Shown here: in pieces, positions 29,598 to 63,435 of the stretch
Position numbering within the stretch: the stretch's first letter is position 1
Layout of the letters: each line of letters starts with the position of its first letter
Translations under genes and position numbers: made by a program
The notes under the pieces: model-generated
What the model saw: the letters and a program-made list of their open reading frames with translations, nothing else
Databases searched by the model: none
Told to the model about the DNA's origin: nothing
Sequence record: PZ445534.1
DNA from: a phage
Strand: one strand, 5' to 3'
Length of the DNA stretch: 64,000 nucleotides

Positions 29598-30131
29598 TCA
29601 ACTTAGTTTTGCAAACTCTCCGTGGAGTTTAATAGCAGCTTCACAGTAAGCTTTATGGGCTTCTTCAGGTGTGTCATGGTGACCTAAAAACATCTTCTTA
29701 CCTTTATAACTTATCTGTGCGACCCACTTACCAGACTTCTTCTTAAGACTTACACCCTTGTACCCAGATTTATTGGTGACCGGTTTACCTTTATTCCAAG
29801 CACTTTGAAAATCATCTGCTTCCCTTAAGTTTACAATCCTGTTGTCAAGTGAGTCTCCGTTGATATGGTCAATGATACCTTTTGGCATCTTGCCATACAC
29901 GTAAAGCCATGCGAGTCTGTGTGCTTTATGTGCTTTCTTGTCAAAATAGATACTAACCTGTTTATGACCACTTGAATCAGTCTGGATATTACCTGCCACC
30001 TTTCCTGCATAATTACTGTTAAAAACACTAACAGCTCTTGATTTACCTTCTCTACGAAGCCAAGTAAAGACCCCTGTTTCGGGGTCATAGTGCAGCAGCT
30101 CCTTTAAACGTTTTTGTAAAATTAAATCCAT
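29598..30131 (-). CDS. free-standing HNH homing endonuclease with AP2-type DNA-binding domain
   Basis: 177 aa; HNH motif IDHINGDSLDNRIVNLR; AP2-like YKGVS...GKWVAQI...GHHDTPEEAHKAY; immediately downstream of split polymerase. Confidence 0.8.
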   Translation of the reverse strand: MDLILQKRLKELLHYDPETGVFTWLRREGKSRAVSVFNSNYAGKVAGNIQTDSSGHKQVSIYFDKKAHKAHRLAWLYVYGKMPKGIIDHINGDSLDNRIVNLREADDFQSAWNKGKPVTNKSGYKGVSLKKKSGKWVAQISYKGKKMFLGHHDTPEEAHKAYCEAAIKLHGEFAKLS

Positions 30132-30134
30132 TAA

Positions 30135-30689
30135 TCAATGTACCTCATACCAGCTCTTACCAACCTTTGCTGTACCAGTTACAAGTGTTTCTTTCCTCAA
30201 ACCTAAGTTTTTTGAAGCTTGTCCATACATCCAGTCAGCAATTGCTTTCATATCATGTGTCATACCCTCTGGACATTCCCAACTATTTTCATCGTGATAT
30301 GCCAGAAGTAACCTTGCTCCGATAGCTGGTTTTCGAGCATTCAGTTTTGTCAGGCCATCTTCACAGGCTTTTCTTGCTGCTAGGTTGATGGCCTCATTCT
30401 GAATCTGTGCTTCCGAACTCATCAGGAGGTAGTTCAGTAGTTTATGTGGAGATTTGCACCATATCCATGCTCCAGCGACCCTGATATAACCACCTTTAGC
30501 AATTGAAGAATTCTTCCCAAAAACCTCTTCCAGAGCCTTTTTAGACGCCTTAAAATCGGCTTCTAAGCTATCAAGTAACTTCTTAATCTTTGGCAGACGC
30601 ATATAGTAAGTTTGTTTAGTCAATGCACCTTCTTCCGTAGATGATGCCTTGATAGTTTTTGCAAACTTCTCGTCTCCAGCCCCGAACAA
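30135..30689 (-). CDS. DNA polymerase (family A) 3' exon / C-terminal part; ORF-track start is an in-frame TTG, true exon start is the intron 3' splice site
   Basis: Contains motif-B continuation LFGAGDEK (T7 gp5 has YGAGDEK) and motif C LLLAYHDE. Confidence 0.75.
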   Translation of the reverse strand: MFGAGDEKFAKTIKASSTEEGALTKQTYYMRLPKIKKLLDSLEADFKASKKALEEVFGKNSSIAKGGYIRVAGAWIWCKSPHKLLNYLLMSSEAQIQNEAINLAARKACEDGLTKLNARKPAIGARLLLAYHDENSWECPEGMTHDMKAIADWMYGQASKNLGLRKETLVTGTAKVGKSWYEVH

Positions 30690-30962
30690 TACATCTGGTC
30701 AATACACTCGCAAGGTGTACCAGTTCTCTTATGAACTTCTCCGCATTTCTACGGAGTGTCGGACTATATCACGTAGCAGTGGTGCTACCGTTGCACTTGG
30801 GATGGTCATTAGCTTACCACCCTACTCTACTCAGTTCATACGTTAAGTATGCTTTTCGATAGTCTCTGAACGTTCCTCTTAAGAGGCTTCGCTGCTGATT
30901 ACCATATCTTTACAGACTTAGGCTTCCAGCAATTCACAACGTTTTACATGCGCCACTGACGC
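30687..30962 (-). ncRNA. putative ORF-less group I self-splicing intron in DNA polymerase gene (boundaries approximate, +/-10 nt)
   Basis: Separates polymerase motif A/B from motif C; minus strand carries group I P7-like elements AGACTATCG and GATATAGTCCGAC; in-frame TAA just inside 5' end. Confidence 0.6.
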
Positions 30963-33131
30963 ATAAATGCCATTTTTGGCTTTCTTACGACCTTTTGTAA
31001 TCTCGTGGAGAAGTTCCTCATCCTGTGTCTCCCTACAACGAACAATGTCTTCTTCCTTGTTCAGACCAAAGTAAATACTATTCAGTGTATGTGCATCAGT
31101 ACCTGTGTAGACTTCATAGAGGTCATTCTCAGCATCATAACGCAGATACTTGTCAGTTTCTGGGTTAAGATACTTGTCAAGATGCTTGCAGTAGTATCTA
31201 CCATCATCTTGCTTAGTGAACTCAACTGACTCTTTACCCTCAGTTACCGCTTTAGTGAAGTCTTCATCACCCATAAAGTTACAAAGAAGAACTAGCTGGG
31301 CTGAGTTTTGGTCTACAGAGACAACGTTAGTACCTTCTTCACAAATCCACACCTCCCTCATAGGTGCTCCATAGACAGCAGCACCAGACGGTACGTTTAC
31401 AATACCATATTGTGTCATACGTCCAGTTGAAGTACCAAACACCATTGCACCAGCACTAAGGCGACCATCAGGACGAATCTGGTTCAACCAACCTTTTTCA
31501 TCATCTTTTGAGTTCTCAATAGTTCTACGTCGGTGCATCAAAGTATAGTACTTAGCAATCTTCTGTCCAAGCTCACCTTCAATCGTATCATAAGATGATT
31601 CAGTAAGTTTTGGTGAAGTACGGATTAAGCAAGGCTCAAGCAAATCTGTGTATTTCTTCACAGACCAGTTATGCTCAATGTACTGGACACCTTCATGCTC
31701 AACATAGCTCAAACCACACCGCTCAACCATTTCCTGCCACTTAGGATGCTTTGTAATCATCTTTTTATTGTCTTTGAAACGACAAACTTTGATAGGGCGA
31801 CCATCTGAGTCTTTCTTGTAATTCCAGTCATCTGGAATCCAACCAACTGATTTCAAGTAGTCTTTAACAACTGCTACCTGAGTCATACGAGAAACTTCAA
31901 ACTCAATTGGTGTATATGGTGCATCAATCAAACCTGTGTAGCGACTTGACTCAAGTTCAAAGTGGTTAACAACGTGGCTGTTATAGTACTTCACAGTTTT
32001 GACTGTTTTTACTGGCTTCCAGTCTTTGCATTTCTTACCAATCTTTGCGTTCAACTCATTGCAAATTGCACGAGCATCCTTCATTGCTACAAAACCTTCC
32101 TTGTACTCTTCACCAGTTACAGAGTTGGTTGGTGTATAGCAATTCCTTTTTTCAATGTTAAAAATCTTTGTAGTTGGCTTACCAAATGGTTTGATTTCGT
32201 ATGTCTGCATCTCACCATTACGTACCTGCTGACGATACTTTGTCTTAGGGTACTTGGTAATTCTTTTCAGTCCATCTGCATGACCAAATGTTTCAACATA
32301 CTCATTCCAAGCTTTTGCAAACTCTTCTCCAGTGACTTTACCTTTGGTCTTAATAGTTGGAGGAAGATGTGGTTCAACCTCTGAAGCAAGCTCATTAGTC
32401 AACTTGTCAAGTTCCTTTACATGGAACTCCATAAGCTCTTTATCAGCTTTCCAACCATTAATAGCTTGTTGACTCATCCAGAAAGATGTTTCTTTAGCTC
32501 GCATGTAGGTTTCATAAGTGTCTATGCCACACTTCTTAAGCTTGAGATACTCATTATCAAGTGCCCGTTTAGTTTTGGCGTTAATACGGATATCTTCTAC
32601 AACACGAGTGAAGATTTCTGCATTCCACACACCCCAATGTTCAATCTCTGGTTTACGAACACCAACACGAGCACCCCATGCAGCCAAGCCATGAGCACCT
32701 TTATAACCCTTTGGAGTTGGTCTATCCATCCACTGAACACGAGACTGGATAAGAGAATCCTGAAAGAAATTACTCCACGGCTTACACTTTGGATTATCAA
32801 AGTTCCATAAATCCGGTGCAATGTGATTGAAAACCCACCAGTCATAACCTAGACCATTATGAATGCAAAGACGTTTTGCCTTTAACGCAAACTCAACACC
32901 TTCACGTAAGCCACCCTTAATGTACTTGGTATACTTGTGACCGAGGATAGGCTCATCTGTAAAGACCCATACAGGCGGCTCTTTATCGTCAGATTTATAG
33001 TCTGCGAAAGCCATTACGTGCACTTTAGTGAACTCAAGGAGTAAACCATCAGTTTCTGTATCACCAACTAAATGTAAGTTTTTAAAATCTACGTTTTCCA
33101 TTTTTACTCCCTCTAAAATCATTAACCTCAT
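30918..33131 (-). CDS. DNA polymerase (family A) 5' exon: 3'-5' exonuclease domain and N-terminal polymerase domain; last ~14 codons of ORF are intron read-through
   Basis: Exo I motif DTETDGL; motif A VDQNSAQLVLL (cf. DYSQIELR); motif B start RKKAKNGIY. Confidence 0.8.
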   Translation of the reverse strand: MRLMILEGVKMENVDFKNLHLVGDTETDGLLLEFTKVHVMAFADYKSDDKEPPVWVFTDEPILGHKYTKYIKGGLREGVEFALKAKRLCIHNGLGYDWWVFNHIAPDLWNFDNPKCKPWSNFFQDSLIQSRVQWMDRPTPKGYKGAHGLAAWGARVGVRKPEIEHWGVWNAEIFTRVVEDIRINAKTKRALDNEYLKLKKCGIDTYETYMRAKETSFWMSQQAINGWKADKELMEFHVKELDKLTNELASEVEPHLPPTIKTKGKVTGEEFAKAWNEYVETFGHADGLKRITKYPKTKYRQQVRNGEMQTYEIKPFGKPTTKIFNIEKRNCYTPTNSVTGEEYKEGFVAMKDARAICNELNAKIGKKCKDWKPVKTVKTVKYYNSHVVNHFELESSRYTGLIDAPYTPIEFEVSRMTQVAVVKDYLKSVGWIPDDWNYKKDSDGRPIKVCRFKDNKKMITKHPKWQEMVERCGLSYVEHEGVQYIEHNWSVKKYTDLLEPCLIRTSPKLTESSYDTIEGELGQKIAKYYTLMHRRRTIENSKDDEKGWLNQIRPDGRLSAGAMVFGTSTGRMTQYGIVNVPSGAAVYGAPMREVWICEEGTNVVSVDQNSAQLVLLCNFMGDEDFTKAVTEGKESVEFTKQDDGRYYCKHLDKYLNPETDKYLRYDAENDLYEVYTGTDAHTLNSIYFGLNKEEDIVRCRETQDEELLHEITKGRKKAKNGIYASVAHVKRCELLEA

Positions 33132-38969: not shown

Positions 38970-40016
38970 ATGGAGAAGTACACATTAACAAAACTTCCCG
39001 ATTCAGTTACACATGTTTTTATTGACTCTGACAGTATTGCCTATAAAGGTGCTTGTGTAGTTGAGAAAGCAAAGTATAAATATGTCAATAAACTCACAGC
39101 AGAAGAATCTGAACCATTTGATAATGCGAAAGATGCTGCAAGATGGTTAGCAGACCAGAGAATCCTTGTGGAAGAACTTGGCCTGACATTTGATGAAGAT
39201 GAATGGGAAAGACAGACTTGGAAAGAAGCTAAGAGTGAAAAAGAAGCTATCATGGCTACTCAACAGGTTCTTCAGGAATGGCTTAAGGTTGTTGGTAAAG
39301 AGAGAATTTGGGTAGGTTATCTAACAGAGAAAGGTGTGCATAAGCATAAAGACATTAAAGGTCTTGAGCACCAATATCAAGGTAACCGTAAAGATGCTGT
39401 CACACCAACACACTTAGTTGCTTGTCGTGAGTATCTTCTGTCAAGACCAGAGTTCAAACTAATTCTTGATGGATTTGAAGCCGATTCTATCGTTATTGCT
39501 AAAGCTGAAAAGATGGGTAAAAAGGCTGCCTTGATGAGTATTGATAAAGACCTTCGTCAAGCTGAAGGGACTTACTGCATTGATATGACCTATGAAAAGT
39601 CACCTTTGATTTTCATTGCTGACAACAACGTAGGTGAAATTTGGGATTGCCCAATAAAATCGACACCAAAAGCTAAGAAGACAGTTGGGGTAGGTTTTAA
39701 ATTTCTTTGTTACCAAGCTGTGGCTGGTGATAATGCTGATAATTATTTTGGTTTAAAGGGCGTTGGTAAGGCTACTGTAATGAAAGCACTTGAAGGTAAA
39801 ACCACCTACAAAGAGTGTCTTGATGCAATTTATGAGCTTTATGCTAAGAAAGAGTCATACACTTATGTCTCGTGGGATGGTCAAACAATTACCAGAACAC
39901 CTTTAGAGTTAATGCAGCAACACTTTTTCTTAGCTTATCAGGAAAGAAACAAGAAAGACGATTTTACTTTTGATAAGTATGGGTGGACACCAAATGTTAA
40001 CTCAACAAACTCTTAA
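38970..40016 (+). CDS. 5'-3' exonuclease / flap endonuclease (T7 gp6-like)
   Basis: 348 aa; H3TH-like motif AGDNADNYFGLKGVGKATVMKAL; N-terminal FIDSDSIAYK. Confidence 0.65.
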   Translation: MEKYTLTKLPDSVTHVFIDSDSIAYKGACVVEKAKYKYVNKLTAEESEPFDNAKDAARWLADQRILVEELGLTFDEDEWERQTWKEAKSEKEAIMATQQVLQEWLKVVGKERIWVGYLTEKGVHKHKDIKGLEHQYQGNRKDAVTPTHLVACREYLLSRPEFKLILDGFEADSIVIAKAEKMGKKAALMSIDKDLRQAEGTYCIDMTYEKSPLIFIADNNVGEIWDCPIKSTPKAKKTVGVGFKFLCYQAVAGDNADNYFGLKGVGKATVMKALEGKTTYKECLDAIYELYAKKESYTYVSWDGQTITRTPLELMQQHFFLAYQERNKKDDFTFDKYGWTPNVNSTNS

Positions 40017-40485
40017 AGAGTACCTACATTATGACCCCGAAACAGGGGTCTTTACTTGGATTAAGAAATCTGCTAGACACACAAAAATTGGCTCTGTTGC
40101 AGGTACAAACTTAAGAGGGTATACCAGAATTTATTTGTTTGGTAAGGGCTATTATGCACATACCCTAGCCGTTCTGTATATGGATGGATACCTACCTGAG
40201 TGTGTTGACCATAAAAATCATGTAACACTAGACAATCGCTGGGTAAATCTTAGGGCATGTACGTTATCAGAGAACCAATGTAATAGGTTGCTCAATAAGA
40301 ACAATAAATCAGGTGTTAAAGGTGTGTACTACAAAAAACAGTATGGTAAGTGGTCTACACAGATAACTTTTAAGAAGAGGGTTTACTTCTTCGGCAACTA
40401 TGACACTATTGATGAAGCAGCAGAGGTTGTAAATAGGGAACGTCAACGTTTACACAAAGAGTTTGCTAATAAAGGTGATGAATGA
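39970..40485 (+). CDS. free-standing HNH homing endonuclease with AP2 domain (paralog of 29598..30131)
   Basis: 171 aa; HNH motif VDHKNHVTLDNRWVNLR; AP2-like GVKGVYYKKQYGKWSTQI; shares N-terminal LHYDPETGVFTW with the other HNH. Confidence 0.75.
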   Translation: MISMGGHQMLTQQTLKEYLHYDPETGVFTWIKKSARHTKIGSVAGTNLRGYTRIYLFGKGYYAHTLAVLYMDGYLPECVDHKNHVTLDNRWVNLRACTLSENQCNRLLNKNNKSGVKGVYYKKQYGKWSTQITFKKRVYFFGNYDTIDEAAEVVNRERQRLHKEFANKGDE

Positions 40486-40982
40486 GAAAAATAAAAGGTT
40501 TTGGCAATTGCCCTGAATATGGACATTGGGTTTCACTATGTGGTGAAGTTGACCCAGCAAAGCACTTTGGTTTTGTCTACCTAGTGTACTGCAAAAAGAC
40601 TGGACAGTACTATTTGGGTAAAAAACAGCTTAACAGTGTGACCAAAAGAAAAGTTGCTGGGAAGACTCGGAAGAAGATAGTCACTAAGGAAAGTGATTGG
40701 ATGACTTATGAGACTTCTTCTGAGTATATTAAAAAAGATATTGAAAGCTTTGGAAAAGAATTTTTTGACTTTTACATTATTCAGACCTACTACACAAAAG
40801 GTGGCCTAGTCTATGGTGAAGCAAACCTTCAACATAAATTCGATGTAATGACAAAAAGGATTGACTCGAAGCTCAGACTCTTCTACAATGCCAATATTGC
40901 AGCAATTAAGTTTATTACTAAAGAAACTTATGAAGATGCTGAAAAAAGAATCCATAAGGTAATGAAAGCAAACTGTGCTTGA
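40482..40982 (+). CDS. putative GIY-YIG family endonuclease
   Basis: 166 aa; GIY-YIG-like N-terminus GFVYLVYCKKTGQYYLGKK. Confidence 0.5.
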   Translation: MRKIKGFGNCPEYGHWVSLCGEVDPAKHFGFVYLVYCKKTGQYYLGKKQLNSVTKRKVAGKTRKKIVTKESDWMTYETSSEYIKKDIESFGKEFFDFYIIQTYYTKGGLVYGEANLQHKFDVMTKRIDSKLRLFYNANIAAIKFITKETYEDAEKRIHKVMKANCA

Positions 40983-46767: not shown

Positions 46768-47964
46768 ATGAACAAAGTACAGATTATTAAAAAGAATGGC
46801 TCACTTGAAGAACCTGATATCAAAAAAGTTTTAGCAGCAGTCACAAAGTCAGCTAACAGAGTTGGTTATAAAGAGCTTCCACCAGATGTTACTCAAGCTC
46901 TTGAGTCAGCATTTATGAGGATTCTGGTAAAGTCCACTAAGCAGAATAATTTGCTAATTTCGGTAAATGATATTCACAGTATTGTTGAGGGTGCTTTGGC
47001 AGAAGTCAATCACGAGATTTATGAGTCTTACTCAACATATAGAAATTACCGTAAAGAGGTTGCTCAAAATTGGGATGAACTCTACCAGAAGACCAAAGAT
47101 ACACTCTTCTTAGGCGACCGAGAAAACGCTAATTTTGACAGCAGTTTAATTTCTACAAAAGGCTCAATTATTCGTGGTTACCTGACTAAAGAAATCTTTA
47201 AACAGTACCATTTAACACCAGAGGAACTTGAAGCCATTGAAAAAGGATTTATCTATATCCATGATTTAAGAGACCTAATTTTTGGTGGTATCAACTGTTG
47301 CCTGTTTGACATTGGTAAAGTCCTGAAAGGTGGCTTTGAAATGTCTGGCATTGAATATTGTGAACCGAAGTCTGTGCTGTCAGCCTTACAGGTTATTGGT
47401 GATGTAGTTCTTTCAGCAACTGCACAGCAATTTGGTGGCTTTACTTTAGCAGAGATTGATAAGGTACTTGTACCGTATGCTAAGAAGTCTCTACGTTACC
47501 ATGCTGAAAAAGCAACAGCTTATGGTATTCCTAAAGAACATTACCACAACTATGTCATGGAGCAGCTACAGATTGAATTAACTCAAGGTTTTCAGTCTCT
47601 TGAAATGAAGCTCAATACTGTGCCTTGTAGCCGTGGTGATTTTGCATTCACAACTTTGACATTCGGGTTACTTGACTCAGATATGTCTAATGAAGATAAC
47701 CGACTGCAATACATGATTGCGAGCACTCTCCTAGATGTTCGTATGAATGGACAAGGTAAGAGCAAGAAACCTGTTGTATTCCCTAAACTGGTTTATATTT
47801 ATGACCAGAAGAGACACAATGAGAATATCTGTCAAGGCCACCTGTACAGTAAAGCTATTGAGTGTTGCTCTAAAGCTATGTATCCAGATTTCTTAAGTGT
47901 ATCTGGACATGGTGCTGTAGCAGAGGCTTTTGAGCGTTCTGGCAAGGTAATTTCCCCGATGGGT
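46768..47964 (+). CDS. nrdD: anaerobic ribonucleoside-triphosphate reductase, exon 1
   Basis: N-terminal ATP-cone; exon ends ...ISPMG before intron that begins with in-frame TAA. Confidence 0.85.
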
Positions 47965-48280
47965 TAACAAGCTCTATAGCTCATCTAAAACGTGCCTAAA
48001 CAGGGAAACTCTACAGATGTAGACAATCCTGTGCTAAATGATGTACGATGTAAGAAACTATACAACATAGGAGTCTTACATGCCAAATAACTTCGAATAT
48101 GAGTTTGAATACATCTAAATGCCGAACGACTAACCGTGATGAATGTAGCGGTGTAGGGTCAAGCGACTCGAAATGGTACGCTACTTAGAAATAAGTAGAA
48201 GATATAGTCTGGACTTACTGGCGACAGTAAGCAGCTTGAATAAAGCGGGGTAAGCTTAGCGAACTTACTTGAACAACAAG
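47965..48280 (+). ncRNA. group I self-splicing intron (ORF-less, td/nrdD-like) in nrdD
   Basis: 316 nt; strongly resembles T4 td intron core as recalled (CCTAAACAGGGAAACTCTACAGATGTAGACAATCCTGTGCTAAATG; GTAGGGTCAAGCGACTCGAAATGG; AGATATAGTCTGGAC); exon 1 ends in T, intron ends in G, spliced frame preserved. Confidence 0.8.
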
Positions 48281-49228
48281 TGTAGAGCATTTTTATCACC
48301 ATACCATAACGAACATGGTGAAGAGTTTTATGTAGGTCGTGCTAACATTGGTGCTGTATCTTTGAACTTACCAATGATTTATCAGTACACCAAAGAGAAT
48401 GGCTTAGATTTCTGGAAAGAGCTTGATAAGTACCTAGAAATGATTCGCAGCTTCCACAAGAAACGTTACGAAATGATTGCTAATATGCCAGCAAGTTCTA
48501 ACCCTCTTGCATTCACACAGGGTGGTCTGTACAAAGGGAATAAGAAACCTACTGACAAGGTTGGCTGGGATATCGTGAAGTCCTTCACAGCTTCTTTTGG
48601 GGTTACTGCGCTTGATGAGCTATCTGTTCTTGCTGAAGGTAAACGACTCCATGAAGTTGGAAGCTGTAGTTTTGCATATGATGTTCTGGCATACATTAAC
48701 ATGAAAACTGAAGAGTTTAAGAACGAAGATGGCTTCTTGTATGCGGTATATGGCACTCCAGCAGAATCACTTTGTGGAACTCAGTTAAAACAGTTCAGAG
48801 ATATGTTTGGCGTTATTAAAGGTGTCTCTGACAAGGAATACTTTACAAACAGTTTCCATATGAATGTTGCAGCAGACATCTCACCATTTGAGAAGCAGGA
48901 CTTAGAAGAGCCATTCTTCCATATCTGTAGAGGTGGTAGAATCCAGTATGTAAGGGTAGCTAACCCAGAAAACTTAACAGCACTTAAAAGTTGTATTACA
49001 AGAGGGATGTTGAAAGGTTTCTATCAGGGGCTTAACTTTGACTTAGCAATCTGTGAACATTGTGGTAACAGACCAAAGGCTGATGTTGAAGAATGTGAGG
49101 TTTGCCATTCACATGATATCTCTGTGATTAACAGGGTGTGCGGGTACTTGTCATTCACAAAAATTAAAGGTCAGTCTCGAATGAATGACGCTAAGATGGC
49201 AGAAATTAAGGATAGGGTTTCTATGTAA
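48281..49228 (+). CDS. nrdD: anaerobic ribonucleoside-triphosphate reductase, exon 2 (glycyl radical domain)
   Basis: Begins CRAFLS...; C-terminal zinc site CEHCG...CEVCH and glycyl-radical motif RVCGYL. Confidence 0.85.
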   Translation, partial: CRAFLSPYHNEHGEEFYVGRANIGAVSLNLPMIYQYTKENGLDFWKELDKYLEMIRSFHKKRYEMIANMPASSNPLAFTQGGLYKGNKKPTDKVGWDIVKSFTASFGVTALDELSVLAEGKRLHEVGSCSFAYDVLAYINMKTEEFKNEDGFLYAVYGTPAESLCGTQLKQFRDMFGVIKGVSDKEYFTNSFHMNVAADISPFEKQDLEEPFFHICRGGRIQYVRVANPENLTALKSCITRGMLKGFYQGLNFDLAICEHCGNRPKADVEECEVCHSHDISVINRVCGYLSFTKIKGQSRMNDAKMAEIKDRVSM

Positions 49229-51772: not shown

Positions 51773-52045
51773 ATGATTCTCTGGAATCGTGAAAGTACTC
51801 GTGAAAGAGTACTATTCCGTTATTACCCACACTACACTATAGATAACCTGTATGAATGTTTTGTTGTGAAGAACACCATTGCAGTGCTCAATAAGCTTTG
51901 TAGATACACAGGTAGTCAATCCTTCACATTAGGCCACCACAAACCTGTTACAAAAGGTGGTGAACATCACTGTGCAAACTGGTTTATTCAGACTAAAGCT
52001 GATAACCAGAAGCAAGGAGATAACCTTTTAAGTGCCCTAAGATGA
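51773..52045 (+). CDS. small HNH endonuclease
   Basis: 90 aa; HNH-like LGHHKPVTKGGEHHCANWFIQTKADNQKQGDN. Confidence 0.45.
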   Translation: MILWNRESTRERVLFRYYPHYTIDNLYECFVVKNTIAVLNKLCRYTGSQSFTLGHHKPVTKGGEHHCANWFIQTKADNQKQGDNLLSALR

Positions 52046-52165
52046 CCTATGAAGAGCAAGAGAGATATATCAAAAATAATATGCCAGATGTGCTTGACAA
52101 CAACTATACAGATTTGGCAATATCTCTCCTGTTGAAGTTCGAGACAGTTTATAGGGCAACTTATA

Positions 52166-52444
52166 ATGGCTAAAGAAAAGTGGGAGATTTTACCATTAGT
52201 CAGTGAAGGAGGTAATGGTTGTGAAATGTACATGATACGTGGTCATGTTCCAGAGCCAATTGCACTTGAGATGGTAAACAACTTTACAGATGGTTCTTAC
52301 AAAGACTTAGGCGAACCAACTGTCAAGCAACAATGGGTTAAACCTGTACCAGACAGCACAGGTAACTGTAGTGTACTTTATCACGTTGTAGACCCTGCAA
52401 AATGCAAATCTGCAATGGCAGTAACAAACGTAACTTTTGATTGA
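52166..52444 (+). CDS. hypothetical protein
   Basis: 92 aa ORF. Confidence 0.3.
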   Translation: MAKEKWEILPLVSEGGNGCEMYMIRGHVPEPIALEMVNNFTDGSYKDLGEPTVKQQWVKPVPDSTGNCSVLYHVVDPAKCKSAMAVTNVTFD

Positions 52445-53337
52445 GAGAGAAAACTATGAAAACTGTTATTGAAGCCGTCATCACCGCTCAAGAGAAATTC
52501 TTCCACACAGAAAAATTTAATATCATTCAATTCCCATCTGGAGAAATTGGTGGAAACTTCTCTGAAGATTTTGTTAAGTTTACTGAGCGTAATGCCGGTA
52601 AGATTGATAATGTTATAATTACTGTACAGGGATATGACAAAGATACACTGTTTGCATTAGCTTTGGCTAAGGATGCCGTTGACAGTCTTGTTCCCCAGAA
52701 ATCAGCGATGAAAACCGTTGTTTTCGGGTTCTTACCAAATGCTCGATATGACCGCCACATGTTCAAAGGTGATGCAGCAGCACTGAAAGTCTTTGCCAAC
52801 CTAGTTAATGCAATGGGTTTTGATGCAGTATGTGCTCTTGACCCTCATAGTAATGTTGCAGAAAACTTATTTAAGTGCTTTCAAAGCATGAAGCAAAAAG
52901 ATGTGGCAGTACACTTTGCAAGTGACCCACGCATTGATTTCTTGGTAGCCCCAGATGCAGGTGCAGCTAAGAAGACTGAAGATACCGCTAAAGAGGTGGA
53001 TAAACCGTATATCACAATGTCTAAGGTGCGCAATCTTAAGACTGGAGAAATCACTGGTATGCGAATCCTAGACGATGTTGATTTGACCGATAAAACTGTC
53101 ATGATTCTTGATGATATCTGTGATGGTGGTCGAACCTTCGTAGAGGCAGCTAAACACCTACGTGAAGCAGGTGCAAAACGTGTGGAACTCTATGTAACTC
53201 ATGGTATTTTCTCTAAAGGTGTTGAAAACTTACTTGACAACGGTATTGACCATATCTACACTACAAACACCTTAGGTGAAGCTAAAGACCGTGGCTTAAC
53301 ACATTACGCCCAAGTTACTGTAGCAACCATTGATTGA
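52441..53337 (+). CDS. prs: ribose-phosphate pyrophosphokinase (PRPP synthetase)
   Basis: 298 aa; PRPP-binding motif MILDDICDGGRTFVEAAKHLREAGAKRV and overall resemblance to E. coli Prs as recalled. Confidence 0.8.
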   Translation: MREKTMKTVIEAVITAQEKFFHTEKFNIIQFPSGEIGGNFSEDFVKFTERNAGKIDNVIITVQGYDKDTLFALALAKDAVDSLVPQKSAMKTVVFGFLPNARYDRHMFKGDAAALKVFANLVNAMGFDAVCALDPHSNVAENLFKCFQSMKQKDVAVHFASDPRIDFLVAPDAGAAKKTEDTAKEVDKPYITMSKVRNLKTGEITGMRILDDVDLTDKTVMILDDICDGGRTFVEAAKHLREAGAKRVELYVTHGIFSKGVENLLDNGIDHIYTTNTLGEAKDRGLTHYAQVTVATID

Positions 53338-53386
53338 AACTTTATATGGGCTTGAAAGCCCCACTTTGAGAGAGAGAGATTAAAAG

Positions 53387-55168
53387 ATGACTAAATCACT
53401 TTACGCAGTACCAGCAGGTCTTAATGCAGATGCTTACAAGGCATCACATATATATCAGTATCCAGATGCTACGCAATATCTTATGTTGAACCTGACACCA
53501 CGTAGTGATAAATGGTTTAACAGCCCTTTGGCAATTGACGGTGTAGTGGCTTTTGGTATTCAACGTTTCGTTAAAGATTACTTGATAGACCACTGGAACG
53601 CCACTTTCTTTGAACGTGATAAAAAAGAAGCCATTGATGAAATCTTAGAAGTCATGAATGGTGTTCTGGGTAAAGATGCTATCGGTCGAGAGCACTGGGA
53701 AGCACTTCACGACTTAGGTTATCTACCAGTTGAAGTATACGCTGTAGAAGAAGGTACAGTTGTCCCTATGCGCGTCCCAATGATTGTCTTCCAGAACACT
53801 GTTTCAGGCTTCCATTGGGTAGCGGGGTATCTGGAAGATGCTTTCTCTGCTGAGATTTGGAAGGCTTGTACCATTGCAACTATTGCATTGCACTACAAAC
53901 GTATCTGTAAGAAGTGGGCTGACCTTACTTGTGACAACGACTTGCATTTGCCTTATCAGTGCCATGACTTTGCTATGCGTGGTATGTCCGGCTTTACTGA
54001 TGACGCATTTAACGCTGTAGGCCACTTAACCAGCTTTAAAGGAACTGATAGCTTCCCTGCTGTGTATACGGCTAAACGAATCTATGGACAGTCCTACCCA
54101 ATCTCTGATATTGGTAGCTCTGTACCAGCCACTGAGCACTCTGTAATGTGTGCAAACATTGCTTGGGAAGGTGGTAATGAGTTGATTGAAGAAGAAAGAC
54201 GCTTTAAAGGTGAGTTACAAACCTTCCGTCGTTTCTTAACAGAAACTTACCCAACTGGTATTGCAAGTGTTGTTTCAGACACTTATAACTTCTGGAGAAC
54301 TGTGTCAGAAATTTTACCAGCACTTCGTAAAGAAATTATGGAACGTGATGGCAAACTGGTAATTCGTCCTGACTCTGGAGACCCTGTACATATTGTCACA
54401 GGTTATAAAGCAATCCACTTAGAATGTGCTAAAAAGGCTTATTACGAGCACCTAAGCAAGCTGGAAGCCAGTGACACAATGTTGAATGCTGTTCTGAACA
54501 TGAAGCTTGAAAATATCAACTATGGTATTGCTGGATGGCTACTGTCAGAAGGCTACGAAATGGTTGTTGACAGAGAAGACTTTGAAGTTGCTGATACAGT
54601 GATGTTGAAAAATGCTTATATGGTTGGTTCTGCAAACGTTGTAACACGTCCTGTAGCTGAGATTGATGGAGCTATTAAGACACTGTACAACATCTTCGGA
54701 GGGACTATTAACTCTAAAGGGTTTAAGGTACTGGATGAGCACATCGGCCTTATCTATGGTGACTCTATCACGCTGGAACGTGCAAACGAAATCCTGAAGC
54801 GTCTGTATGAAATGGGTTTTGCAAGCTCTAACGTAGTGTTTGGTGTAGGCTCTTACACTTACCAGTACATGACTCGTGACACCTTTGCATTTGCTGTCAA
54901 AGCAACTCTTGCAAGCATTGGTGGTAAAGAGATTATGCTTGCAAAAGACCCTAAAACAGATAGTGGTGTTAAGAAATCTGCCTTTGGTGGTGTAGCACCT
55001 ATGTGGGATGGTGATAAGCTGAAAGCTGTAGATGGCTATGGATTCCAGAGTTTTGCAGATGTACTTGACCACCAAGCTTGTGCTTTACGTTTAGTCTTTA
55101 GCGACTCTGAGCAGTTCGGTTATACAACTCTTGGAGATATTCGAAATAATATTGACAAGCAGCTTTAA
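53387..55168 (+). CDS. nadV: nicotinamide phosphoribosyltransferase (NadV/NAMPT-like)
   Basis: 593 aa; N-terminal DAYKASHIYQYP matches NAMPT signature DSYKVTHYKQYP as recalled; adjacent to prs. Confidence 0.75.
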   Translation: MTKSLYAVPAGLNADAYKASHIYQYPDATQYLMLNLTPRSDKWFNSPLAIDGVVAFGIQRFVKDYLIDHWNATFFERDKKEAIDEILEVMNGVLGKDAIGREHWEALHDLGYLPVEVYAVEEGTVVPMRVPMIVFQNTVSGFHWVAGYLEDAFSAEIWKACTIATIALHYKRICKKWADLTCDNDLHLPYQCHDFAMRGMSGFTDDAFNAVGHLTSFKGTDSFPAVYTAKRIYGQSYPISDIGSSVPATEHSVMCANIAWEGGNELIEEERRFKGELQTFRRFLTETYPTGIASVVSDTYNFWRTVSEILPALRKEIMERDGKLVIRPDSGDPVHIVTGYKAIHLECAKKAYYEHLSKLEASDTMLNAVLNMKLENINYGIAGWLLSEGYEMVVDREDFEVADTVMLKNAYMVGSANVVTRPVAEIDGAIKTLYNIFGGTINSKGFKVLDEHIGLIYGDSITLERANEILKRLYEMGFASSNVVFGVGSYTYQYMTRDTFAFAVKATLASIGGKEIMLAKDPKTDSGVKKSAFGGVAPMWDGDKLKAVDGYGFQSFADVLDHQACALRLVFSDSEQFGYTTLGDIRNNIDKQL

Positions 55169-55181
55169 AAGTATATGATAA

Positions 55182-55206
55182 GAGGCTCCTACGGGAGCCT
55201 TTTTAA
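55182..55206 (+). terminator. rho-independent terminator
   Basis: GAGGCTCC-tacg-GGAGCCT + TTTT. Confidence 0.55.
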
Positions 55207-55221
55207 TTTCTGGAGAAGACT

Positions 55222-55557
55222 ATGAAAATCAAAGAAATGAACATCAACATTGTCTTAGAAGAACGTTGGGAGAACATCAAGAAGCCTGAAGATGGTAAAA
55301 AGTTCCTTAACAAAATTTTAGTAGCAGCTAAAGAAGAACTGACTGGCAAGATTGCAGCAGCAATCACAATAAAAATCTGTGTAAAAGGTCTTCCACAACA
55401 TCACCAATTTGCACTTGACGAGTTTAAAGAAAGCTTCTACAATCCAAACAAACAGATGCTTGAAAGTAACTTTGCAGTGTCTACAAGTATCGTCCATGAC
55501 AGAAGCTTTATCCTTTACAAGAATATGAGAGGTGAGTCATGCAAGCATATTGGATAG
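55222..55557 (+). CDS. hypothetical protein
   Basis: 111 aa ORF. Confidence 0.35.
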   Translation: MKIKEMNINIVLEERWENIKKPEDGKKFLNKILVAAKEELTGKIAAAITIKICVKGLPQHHQFALDEFKESFYNPNKQMLESNFAVSTSIVHDRSFILYKNMRGESCKHIG

Positions 55558-55715
55558 AAATTTTACTGTCACTTGGTAGTGTAGCAGTATTTGTTTACCT
55601 TCTTTGCAAGTACTATGCAGAGCACAAGAAGTGTGATTACTGCAACGGGGAAGGGTACACAAGAGCAGGCTGTTGCCCTATGTGTGGTGGTTCTGGTAAA
55701 ATGTTTAATAAGTAA
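55539..55715 (+). CDS. small membrane-anchored Cys-rich (CxxCxGxG-type) protein, not in ORF track
   Basis: 58 aa from ATG 55539; N-terminal TM helix then CDYCNGEG...CCPMCGGSG zinc-finger-like repeats. Confidence 0.3.
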   Translation: MQAYWIEILLSLGSVAVFVYLLCKYYAEHKKCDYCNGEGYTRAGCCPMCGGSGKMFNK

Positions 55716-62649: not shown

Positions 62650-63435
62650 ATGGGTATTGTAAAAATCATCAATGGCGATATCTTTGCCGCATTTGATAAA
62701 GGTAAGTTTGACATTATTGGTCACGGTTGCAACTGTATGAATTTAATGGGTGCAGGTATCGCTGACAAGATTTCTAAACTTTACCCAAAAGCATATGAGA
62801 CAGATACAGAAGTCTATCTATATGCAGGTGGCATAGGTCACAAACCCTGTGAAAATTTACTGGGTAATTTCTCTGTAGCACGTTTAAAACAAGGTCGTAT
62901 AGCTAACCTTTACACTCAGCTTAAGACTGGTAAAGATGCCCGATACAGTGCTTTAGAGTCATCTTTGAAGCAACTTAACAGATACTGTGAAGTTAATCAG
63001 TTGAAGAAAGTTGGTTTACCTATGATTGGTGCAGGTATCGGTGGACTTGACCCTCAAGCCGTCACAGTTATCATCAATCAGGTGATGAAGAGCGTAGATG
63101 TTTATCTATATGTCTATGAAGGAGAGATGTACCATAAGTTACTCTCAGGTTGGAAGAACTACTGTGAACCAGAATACTTTGCAGGTGTAGCAGTGTTCAC
63201 AGATAACGCAGTTACCCTCTTCAGACGAAGAAAAGGTAAGATACATCAAAGTAACCCTCCGGTTGAAAAGATGTCTCTAAGTAACGCTCTAGTTACCCAC
63301 CTGTCAAAGAGCAATCACAGAATTGCTGTAACATTTGGTAGTGATGCAGAAGCTTATATCTATGCAAGAACTGATGAGGATATTGAGGCAATCTTCTCTT
63401 CACCAGAAGTTACCTTCTTAGACGCAAAGAACTAA
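62650..63435 (+). CDS. macro-domain (ADP-ribose binding/processing) protein
   Basis: 261 aa; macro-domain-like blocks IINGDIF...IIGHGCNCMNLMGAGIADKI and VGLPMIGAGIGGLD (cf. YmdB-type GDIT...NAAN...GGGGV and FPAISTGVYG). Confidence 0.5.
   Translation: MGIVKIINGDIFAAFDKGKFDIIGHGCNCMNLMGAGIADKISKLYPKAYETDTEVYLYAGGIGHKPCENLLGNFSVARLKQGRIANLYTQLKTGKDARYSALESSLKQLNRYCEVNQLKKVGLPMIGAGIGGLDPQAVTVIINQVMKSVDVYLYVYEGEMYHKLLSGWKNYCEPEYFAGVAVFTDNAVTLFRRRKGKIHQSNPPVEKMSLSNALVTHLSKSNHRIAVTFGSDAEAYIYARTDEDIEAIFSSPEVTFLDAKN

Follow-up and report, generated by a model that had tools for sequence, protein, structure and literature searches.

Adjacent Adps and Namat genes in a Felixounavirus very likely form an NAD+ reconstitution pathway 1 (NARP1) operon

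Background

NARP1 (NAD+ reconstitution pathway 1) was discovered at the operon formed by genes 79-80 of Bas63, Escherichia phage JohannRWettstein (Osterman et al. 2024, bioRxiv 10.1101/2024.02.11.579819). Deletion of this operon (Δ79-80) makes Bas63 sensitive to SIR2-HerA, and ADPR-PP (m/z 720.010) was seen only when the infecting phage was wild type; Bas63_0079 was also among the query sequences that defined the Adps clade (bioRxiv 10.1101/2024.02.11.579819). Bas63 Adps "did not purify well", and so the biochemistry comes from more distant homologues, with in-vitro reactions and structures obtained for the proteins of Bacillus phage SPβL1 and Vibrio phage ICP1. Both SPβL1 enzymes, Adps and Namat, have been biochemically characterised, with crystal structures of Namat (9W5W/9W5X; PMC12774641), and ICP1 Adps has been solved in apo, substrate-bound and product-bound forms (PMC13586617), these NARP1 enzyme structures having followed in 2025-2026.

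In the published mechanism, a host defence NADase (SIR2, TIR, SEFIR and similar) splits NAD+ into ADP-ribose and nicotinamide. Adps, an enzyme of Prs-like fold, then moves the β,γ-pyrophosphate of ATP to position 1'' on the distal ribose of ADP-ribose, giving ADPR-PP, and Namat, of NAMPT-like fold, lets nicotinamide displace the pyrophosphate of ADPR-PP, so that a single step yields NAD+. As the ADPR-PP substrate brings the adenylate with it, this route has no NMN intermediate and requires no NMN adenylyltransferase. The NARP1 work of Osterman et al. was reportedly later published in Nature.

Three related systems serve as comparisons. NARP2 of Vibrio phage KVP40 likewise uses a NAMPT-fold enzyme to restore NAD+ against NAD+-depleting defences, but it consists of Nampt and a bifunctional Nmnat, starts from PRPP, proceeds via NMN, needs Nmnat and has no Adps. 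NARP3 is defined by PnuC and NadR (PMC13464706). NARP1-AP, of Vibrio phages Gary and Pontus, has the gene order Adps-Adpp-Namat, Adpp being a Macro-domain phosphatase of ADPR-1''-phosphate (bioRxiv 10.64898/2026.01.28.702374).

Results

The locus and its neighbours

The source phage is a Felixounavirus; Bas63, momo and related phages match it at 95.9-98.8% nucleotide identity. The window that we analysed, a stretch of 64,000 nucleotides, covers about three quarters of a genome of ~87 kb, and the collinear Bas63 genome was used as a proxy for the remainder. The features at the locus are as follows.

52139..52167, + strand: sigma-70-like promoter candidate (TCGAGA-17-TATAAT), 10/12 matches in a consensus scan, a pattern match only
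52166..52444, + strand: 92-aa ORF from the ORF list, homologue of bas63_0078; phrog_4726 (unknown function)
52456..53337, + strand: adps, ADP-ribose pyrophosphate synthetase (Prs-like), 293 aa, 290/293 identical to Bas63_0079
53387..55168, + strand: namat, nicotinamide ADP-ribose transferase (NAMPT-like), 593 aa, 581/593 identical to Bas63_0080
55180..55203, + strand: intrinsic-terminator-like hairpin from the consensus scan, a 10-bp stem and then a T run, a pattern match only

The locus is the same as in Bas63, a phage of the same genus, with nrdG upstream and rIIA/rIIB downstream in both. Adps and Namat are 99% and 98% identical to the products of Bas63 genes 79-80 and have the same lengths, insertion included. 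The differences from Bas63 are a few substitutions, the absence from the window of bas63_0081 (downstream of namat), and a truncated 90-aa HNH-like ORF in place of bas63_0077. The two genes adjoin on the same strand with 49 nt between them; a NARP1 locus is recognised by a Namat within 10 genes of an Adps, and here they are direct neighbours. On this evidence we regard the pair, with high confidence, as the NARP1 operon of a Felix O1-like phage.

The first gene probably starts at ATG 52456 rather than at TTG 52441, the start chosen by the ORF finder, as GAGAGAG (52443-52449) precedes this ATG and the resulting 293 aa match the Bas63 annotation. The promoter candidate lies just 5' of the 92-aa ORF upstream of adps, the stop codon of that ORF stands 11 nt ahead of the adps ATG, and the terminator-like hairpin begins 12 nt past the namat stop codon. 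The 92-aa ORF has no Pfam match and is tied to NARP1 by adjacency only; its homologues are confined to Felix O1-like phages, and its co-occurrence with NARP1 is therefore uninformative. A Pfam search of the small ORFs flanking adps-namat gave no Macro, RyR or other ADPR-handling domain.

The first gene product resembles Adps more closely than Prs

The initial annotation had described two adjacent ORFs, a PRPP synthetase with a "PRPP-binding motif" followed by a NAMPT-like protein, and both ORFs are indeed present. ORF 52441-53337 carries DDICDGGRTF and matches Pfam Pribosyltran and Pribosyl_synth, as well as the broad NCBIfam ribose-phosphate diphosphokinase subfamily TIGR01251 (1.7e-40, 138.9 bits against a cut-off of 113). 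It falls below the cut-off of every NCBIfam Prs equivalog, the best score being 113.9 bits where 296 are required. In BLASTP it scores higher against Adps of Pontus (129 bits), ICP1 (120) and SPβL1 (95) than against E. coli Prs (66). Judged from these scores and from its 99% identity to Bas63_0079, the product is a member of the phage Adps clade. Two of its sites can be located by alignment.

53023..53025, + strand: codon of Adps Lys190, the catalytic β-hairpin lysine, aligned with ICP1 K185 and SPβL1 K162
53110..53139, + strand: Adps PP loop DDICDGGRTF, residues 219-228, the motif singled out in the initial annotation

Both ICP1 K185 and SPβL1 K162 are essential according to published work. 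The PP loop, which in Adps binds the ATP-derived pyrophosphate (PMC13586617), resembles DDICDGAASF of ICP1 and DDISDGGASF of Pontus and not the canonical DDMIDTGGTL of Prs. R97, H131, D167, D219, D220 and D223 are all conserved in the alignment. Aligned with E. coli Prs (315 aa), the 293-aa protein shows a gap opposite the C-terminal segment, and from this alignment it appears to be without the α11-α12 regulatory/filament module of Prs, like other Adps proteins. With ICP1 Adps it has in common the catalytic Lys, the acceptor-site Arg/His/Asp, DDICDG in the PP loop and a C-terminus that is shortened, but the two are only 31-37% identical, ICP1 F223 is replaced by Glu230, and the adenine-contact residue F92 is Met102 in this phage, a point against the NARP1 assignment.

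The second gene product carries the Namat selectivity clamp

ORF 53387-55168, which carries DAYKASHIYQYP, belongs to the NAMPT family, as the initial annotation had held, with matches to NF006629 (2.8e-141), NAPRTase and NAMPT_N of Pfam. Its best sequence matches in the PDB are the Namat entries 9W5W/9W5X (5e-129), with human NAMPT at ~1e-41, and the AF2 model (pLDDT 93.1) has the same crystal structures as its best fold matches (TM 0.95, predicted model against crystal). The following sites were placed in the protein.

53498..53527, + strand: selectivity-clamp loop (SCL) PRSDKWFNSP with K42-W43, residues ~38-47, from alignment to SPβL1 R40
54137..54139, + strand: codon of His251, the catalytic histidine of the NAMPT core, aligned with SPβL1 H245
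54404..54661, + strand: lineage-specific insertion domain, residues ~340-425
54848..54880, + strand: selectivity-clamp helix (SCH) motif GSYTYQYMTRD, residues 488-498, matching the published Namat consensus

The motif GSYTYQYMTRD fits the consensus specific to Namats, GS-X-Φ-X-Φ-X-Φ-TRD, and its third and seventh residues are aromatic. According to the published SCL rule, when position 3 is Lys the residue that follows it stacks on the adenine, as in Bas63, and the K42-W43 pair matches this rule and would supply the adenine-stacking residue. The conserved catalytic His has been noted for Namat (PMC12774641), and D15, Y17, F195, R198, D221, H251, R327, D329 and G458-D459 are all conserved in the alignment.

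The SPβL1 system has the same two-gene order, catalytic residues, clamp-helix motif and fold, but identity is only ~28-32% for Adps and ~38-45% for Namat, its Namat (491 aa) is without the ~85-aa insertion and the 258-275 loop, and its clamp loop uses Arg40 where this phage has Lys42-Trp43. Overall, the biochemically studied homologues share only 28-39% (Adps) and ~38-45% (Namat) identity with the proteins of this phage and are without the ~85-aa insertion. From the shared features we infer that the window's own proteins would perform the ADPR to ADPR-PP to NAD+ reactions. The core pair is also common to this phage and NARP1-AP.

The additional length of Namat is an internal insertion

The initial annotation was correct that Namat has about 100 additional residues, but not in placing them at the C-terminus, a position that is ruled out: the extra residues are internal, chiefly an insertion of ~85 aa at ~340-425, plus a variable loop at ~258-275. 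In the predicted model the ~340-425 insertion is confidently folded as an autonomous small α/β domain; searches found no recognisable relative or known fold for it. Only a few residues separate it from the preceding catalytic RPDSGD strand. Candidate roles are the docking of Adps for channelling of ADPR-PP, gating of the adenine-side entrance, or evasion of a host inhibitor.

No NMN adenylyltransferase among the window's genes or elsewhere in Bas63

A greedy gene set of 97 genes spanning the whole window was searched with Pfam profiles, and none matched CTP_transf_like, NUDIX, NadR or PnuC. This extends to the profile level the motif-based observation, made in the initial annotation, that the window encodes no NMNAT; the only two (H/T)xGH strings in the window lie inside the DNA polymerase and the 90-aa HNH-like remnant. 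The remaining ~23 kb of collinear Bas63, which consists of tRNAs and small ORFs, likewise gave no Pfam match to these four families. Neither the window nor the rest of Bas63 therefore shows the NMN adenylyltransferase of NARP2, or the PnuC-like transporter and NadR-like bifunctional enzyme of NARP3. NARP2 is also marked by a PRPP-preferring Nampt without the adenine clamp, and Namat here bears the aromatic clamp; the corresponding segment of the NARP2-type Nampt of the KVP40-like phage D482 is GGGLLQQSDRD, without it. In the D482 locus no Nmnat is annotated within 5 kb of Nampt.

A distal Macro-domain gene

One further gene in the window may bear on the pathway.

62650..63435, + strand: Macro-domain protein, 261 aa, bas63_0095 "putative phosphatase"; Pfam Macro 1e-07, phrog_335 "phosphatase"

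This is the sole Macro gene in the window. Its alignment with Adpp, the NARP1-AP phosphatase of Pontus, spans the whole of Adpp at 27% identity (E 4e-13), and it has a C-terminal extension of ~100 aa relative to Adpp; its match to Poa1p is weak (E ~0.01-0.02), and members of the family are common in T4-like phages too. NARP1-AP is recognised by a Macro phosphatase within ±2 genes of the NARP1 operon, and Pfam searches of the flanking ORFs found none. In NARP1-AP the Macro gene lies between adps and namat, whereas here it is ~7.5 kb downstream of namat. The similarity to Adpp is consistent with a possible unlinked accessory of the NARP1 pathway.

Discussion

The operon, its mechanism, its role against NAD+ depletion and the reason for the absent NMNAT are already known, having been published in 2024 on the near-identical Bas63. 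The view of the locus as a phage NAD+-restoring counter-defence module, taken in the initial annotation, was right on the biology. The enzymology assigned to it, a PRPP synthetase and a NAMPT feeding an NMNAT, is to be replaced by Adps and Namat acting from ADPR through ADPR-PP to NAD+ (bioRxiv 10.1101/2024.02.11.579819), and the comparison with KVP40-like phages is misplaced, KVP40 carrying the different NARP2 pathway.

Classical salvage, in which PRPP would lead to NMN and the host would finish the pathway through NadR, or through PncC and then NadD/NadE, agrees with the family-level Pfam/NCBIfam annotation and the GenBank labels of all relatives, and without ADPR-PP, SPβL1 Namat is able to form NMN from PRPP. 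We nevertheless consider it very improbable and already largely refuted. Bas63 still defeats SIR2-HerA in a ΔpncC ΔnadR host, which speaks against the use of a host enzyme, and the purified SPβL1 gp79 homologue gave no measurable product in the Prs-activity control but pyrophosphorylated ADPR (bioRxiv 10.1101/2024.02.11.579819). When PRPP and ADPR-PP compete, Namat yields NAD+ only. Moreover, Namat of this phage has the ADPR-PP selectivity clamp that true Nampts are without, and Adps scores far under every Prs equivalog cut-off. In vitro, homologues of Namat still make some NMN from PRPP, and so classical salvage may make a minor contribution beside NARP1.

An even smaller probability attaches to a bifunctional enzyme, in which the ~100 extra residues of the NAMPT-like protein would conceal a second catalytic activity such as an adenylyltransferase, the initial annotation having raised a novel activity of its supposed extension as one option. 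The predicted autonomous fold of the insertion and its retention in Ounavirinae-like phages, down to ~46% overall protein identity, are what such an activity would lead one to expect. However, neither (H/T)xGH nor any other nucleotidyltransferase motif occurs in the insertion, its rate of evolution is twice that of the core with only about six positions ≥80% conserved, and in other lineages the same loop bears inserts that are unrelated and differ in size. We see in it a fast-evolving internal domain without catalytic-looking conservation. SPβL1 Namat already makes NAD+ without the insertion, and NARP1 chemistry requires no extra step.

That an NMNAT partner lies beyond the 64-kb window, which would make the pathway NARP2-like, is scarcely credible: the window spans only about three quarters of the genome, but the other ~23 kb of collinear Bas63 gave no CTP_transf_like or NUDIX match, Namat is of the NARP1 clamp type and not the NARP2 Nampt type, and Adps-linked Namats form a clade apart from Nmnat-linked Nampts (Osterman et al.).

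The assignment to NARP1 shows that a pathway rebuilt from family names alone comes out wrong, and the standard labels "ribose-phosphate pyrophosphokinase" and "nicotinamide phosphoribosyltransferase" still mislead in hundreds of phage records. The details of the Felix O1-type system that remain undescribed are the Namat insertion domain and the distal Macro-domain gene. It is conceivable, although we think it rather unlikely, that Felix O1-like phages run an elaborated NARP1 in which the Namat insertion has a specific role and the Macro protein at 62650-63435 acts as Adpp. If so, the Macro protein would give Felix O1-like phages NARP1-AP-type resistance to aRES, and the published ±2-gene search would have missed these phages as carriers of NARP1-AP.

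Identity of the two genes

Both open reading frames (ORFs) of the salvage pair lie where the initial annotation had placed them, as an ORF listing of the window confirms. For the first, adps, ATG 52456 is most likely the true start; it is preceded by GAGAGAG and gives 293 aa, in agreement with the annotation of the closest curated relative. The TTG start at 52441 given by the ORF finder overlaps the stop codon of the upstream ORF.

Features of the operon
52139-52167: promoter-like site (pattern match only), 5' of a 92-aa ORF
between this site and adps: 92-aa ORF of unassigned function, restricted to Felix O1-like phages
52456-53337 (+): adps, 293 aa, Prs-like
53387-55168 (+): namat, 593 aa, NAMPT-like
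55180-55203: terminator-like hairpin with a 10-bp stem (pattern match only), starting 12 nt past the namat stop codon

The gene order is the 92-aa ORF, adps and then namat, with a gap of 49 nt between the last two. In a nucleotide comparison, over 200 Felix O1-like phages match the region at 95-99% identity, among them Escherichia phage JohannRWettstein (Bas63), with which the window is collinear from the large terminase through ~64 kb. Adps is identical to Bas63_0079 at 290 of 293 positions and Namat to Bas63_0080 at 581 of 593, both ungapped. Together they make up NARP1 (Adps and Namat, from ADPR via ADPR-PP to NAD+), an operon already known and published, here in the same phage lineage as its discovery.

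Adps carries DDICDGGRTF and matches Pfam Pribosyltran and Pribosyl_synth, as well as TIGR01251, a broad NCBIfam subfamily of ribose-phosphate diphosphokinases (1.7e-40), and it falls far below all Prs equivalog cut-offs (for example, 113.9 bits vs 296). Structures of ICP1 Adps define as determinants a catalytic lysine in a β-hairpin, conserved Arg, His and Asp residues of the acceptor site, a remodelled PP loop and the lack of the C-terminal α11-α12 module (PMC13586617). In the window Adps, K190 aligns with ICP1 K185 and SPβL1 K162, residues R97, H131, D167, D219, D220 and D223 are present, and the C-terminus is shortened in the alignment. The PP loop, DDICDGGRTF, resembles that of ICP1 (DDICDGAASF) and is unlike that of Prs (DDMIDTGGTL). 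One adenine contact differs, F92 of ICP1 being Met102 here.

Namat carries DAYKASHIYQYP and is matched by the NAMPT-type model NF006629 at 2.8e-141, which upholds the family membership initially proposed for 53387-55168. Namat keeps the NAMPT catalytic core (crystal structures 9W5W/9W5X) and adds an adenine "selectivity clamp", formed by a variable loop together with a helix of consensus GS-X-Φ-X-Φ-X-Φ-TRD, X being aromatic (PMC12774641). Residues 488-498 of the window protein read GSYTYQYMTRD, where the Nampt of a KVP40-like phage reads GGGLLQQSDRD; the clamp loop is K42-W43, the configuration described for Bas63 (PMC12774641), and all listed contacts are kept (D15, Y17, F195, R198, D221, H251, R327, D329, G458 and D459). 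The best PDB sequence matches are the Namat crystals (5e-129, vs ~1e-41 for human NAMPT), and these (9W5W/9W5X) are also the closest fold to the high-confidence AF2 model (pLDDT 93.1; TM 0.95).

Pathway chemistry and the missing NMNAT

Osterman et al. began with this very Bas63 two-gene operon, and their initial expectation, like that of the initial annotation, was that Prs and Nampt would yield NMN, which their results overturned (bioRxiv 10.1101/2024.02.11.579819). With genes 79-80 deleted, Bas63 was sensitised to SIR2-HerA, a system that depletes NAD+; NAD+ was partly restored by the wild-type phage, and ADPR-pyrophosphate appeared as a new metabolite exclusive to cells infected with wild-type phage. 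Bas63 Adps did not purify well; purified SPβL1 Adps pyrophosphorylated ADP-ribose with ATP and gave no measurable product in a Prs-activity control reaction, while SPβL1 Namat converted ADPR-PP and nicotinamide directly to NAD+ and favoured ADPR-PP over PRPP when both were supplied. NARP1 is reported in 4.3% of sequenced phages. The proposed counter-defence role stands, but the proposed chemistry does not, since Adps and Namat give NAD+ via ADPR-PP; nor does the likeness to KVP40, whose system is the distinct NARP2 pathway (Nampt and Nmnat).

The absence of an NMNAT had been read correctly. All 97 non-overlapping ORFs spanning the window were scanned against Pfam, which recovered terminase, capsid, tail and baseplate proteins, thymidylate synthase, DHFR, ligase, dNMP kinase, primase-helicase, aerobic and anaerobic ribonucleotide reductases, glutaredoxin, homing endonucleases and a Macro domain, and no CTP_transf_like, NUDIX, NadR-type or PnuC domain. 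Just two (H/T)xGH strings occur in the window: the first is deep within DNA polymerase, the second in an HNH-like remnant of 90 aa. None of the three explanations offered for this absence (a partner elsewhere, a host enzyme, or a novel activity hidden in Namat) holds. Use of the host enzyme is contradicted by the Bas63 effect being kept in a ΔpncC ΔnadR host (bioRxiv 10.1101/2024.02.11.579819), so that host NMN-to-NAD+ routes are dispensable.

An insertion domain in Namat

The ~100 additional residues are real, but they are internal and not a C-terminal extension as first described, since residues 12-590 align to merely ~454 profile positions of NF006629. Alignment of 43 homologues, with the 491-496-aa forms as reference, places three lineage-specific additions: a main insertion (~340-425), a variable loop (~258-275) and a short C-terminal insert.

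54404-54661 (+): main insertion domain of Namat, residues ~340-425, ~85 aa, α/β

The main insertion starts ~10 residues past the catalytic RPDSGD strand and is predicted with high confidence to form a small β-α-α-α-β-β-α-β-α domain (pLDDT 93-96 within Namat; 92.4 alone, with pTM 0.82), which the models indicate is autonomously folding. No relatives were detected by sequence or fold. It is present in Namats of 590-610 aa down to ~46% overall identity, including those of phiSUSP1, Yersinia P778, Pectobacterium Arno162 and Salmonella SB18, and its rate of evolution is twice that of the core (mean pairwise identity 30% vs 60%), with only ~6 positions reaching ≥80% conservation. In other phage lineages the same loop holds unrelated inserts of 28-98 residues, marking the site as an insertion hotspot. 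Such a pattern is consistent with a peripheral module, of structural or interaction type, at a site that tolerates insertions, and not with a hidden second enzyme. No discussion of the domain turned up in the papers searched, and all in-vitro NARP1 biochemistry was done with Namats that are without it.

Variable surroundings, introns and NARP1 elsewhere

The operon surroundings are a variable spot. At window 55169-55221, bas63_0081 (345 nt), which in Bas63 follows namat and precedes the next conserved ORF, is missing, and LinBro, ekra and ECML-1 have an HNH endonuclease gene instead within the compared stretch 52166-55600. The 90-aa ORF at 51773-52045 (+) matches phrog_3500 at profile positions 39-125 of 170 only and, weakly, an HNH endonuclease family; a 171-aa bas63_0077-type gene appears to have been truncated to this remnant.

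The DNA polymerase gene, unsplit in Bas63 (909 aa), is broken here into two ORFs (30918-33131 and 30135-30689) by a group I intron (30739-31021, -; Rfam RF00028, 61.7 bits); an HNH/AP2 homing-endonuclease ORF (29598-30131, -) lies just downstream. A second group I intron (47850-48231, +; RF00028, 54.6 bits) splits nrdD into 46768-47967 and 48269-49228 and has no ORF big enough for a homing endonuclease, whereas the corresponding Bas63 intron carries such a gene. Two adjoining homing-endonuclease-like ORFs, HNH_3 and SegE-type GIY-YIG (39970-40982, +), lie within the replication/nucleotide-metabolism module, with a weak MazG-like (PRA-PH) match nearby.

Adps matches positions 32-224 and Namat positions 236-534 of phrog_12872 (547 positions), a profile suggesting that some phages may encode a single fused Adps-Namat polypeptide. 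The nearest 496-aa Namat relatives (P0068, P0069, P0086 and P0106 among them) lie on chromosomal contigs, megabases in size, from Klebsiella, Cronobacter, Kluyvera, Kosakonia and Phytobacter, which fits the reported bacterial NARP1 homologues.

A distal Macro-domain gene

62650-63435 (+): Macro-domain protein (Pfam Macro match), 261 aa, bas63_0095 "putative phosphatase"

Some NARP1 operons include Adpp, a Macro-domain ADPR-1''-phosphate phosphatase that lets NARP1 counter aRES, which otherwise beats it (10.64898/2026.01.28.702374). The operon of Vibrio phage Pontus is ordered Adps-Macro-Namat, whereas the Macro gene of the window is unlinked, ~7.5 kb from the NARP1 operon. Its product is 27% identical to Pontus Adpp (E 4e-13, the entire Adpp aligned) and shares the loops H.CNC..MG.GIA and GLP.IG.G..G. 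Counting against such a role, the family (phrog_335) is also common across T4-like phages, the product has an additional ~100-aa C-terminal region, and Poa1p matches it only weakly. A pathway accessory is a possible lead and not a result.

The insertion domain of Namat and this distal gene are the unexplored details left, both minor. With the Macro protein, Felix O1-like phages could have NARP1-AP (Adps, Adpp and Namat) in unlinked form, which, if true, would escape the published survey, as that covered only ±2 genes of NARP1 (10.64898/2026.01.28.702374).
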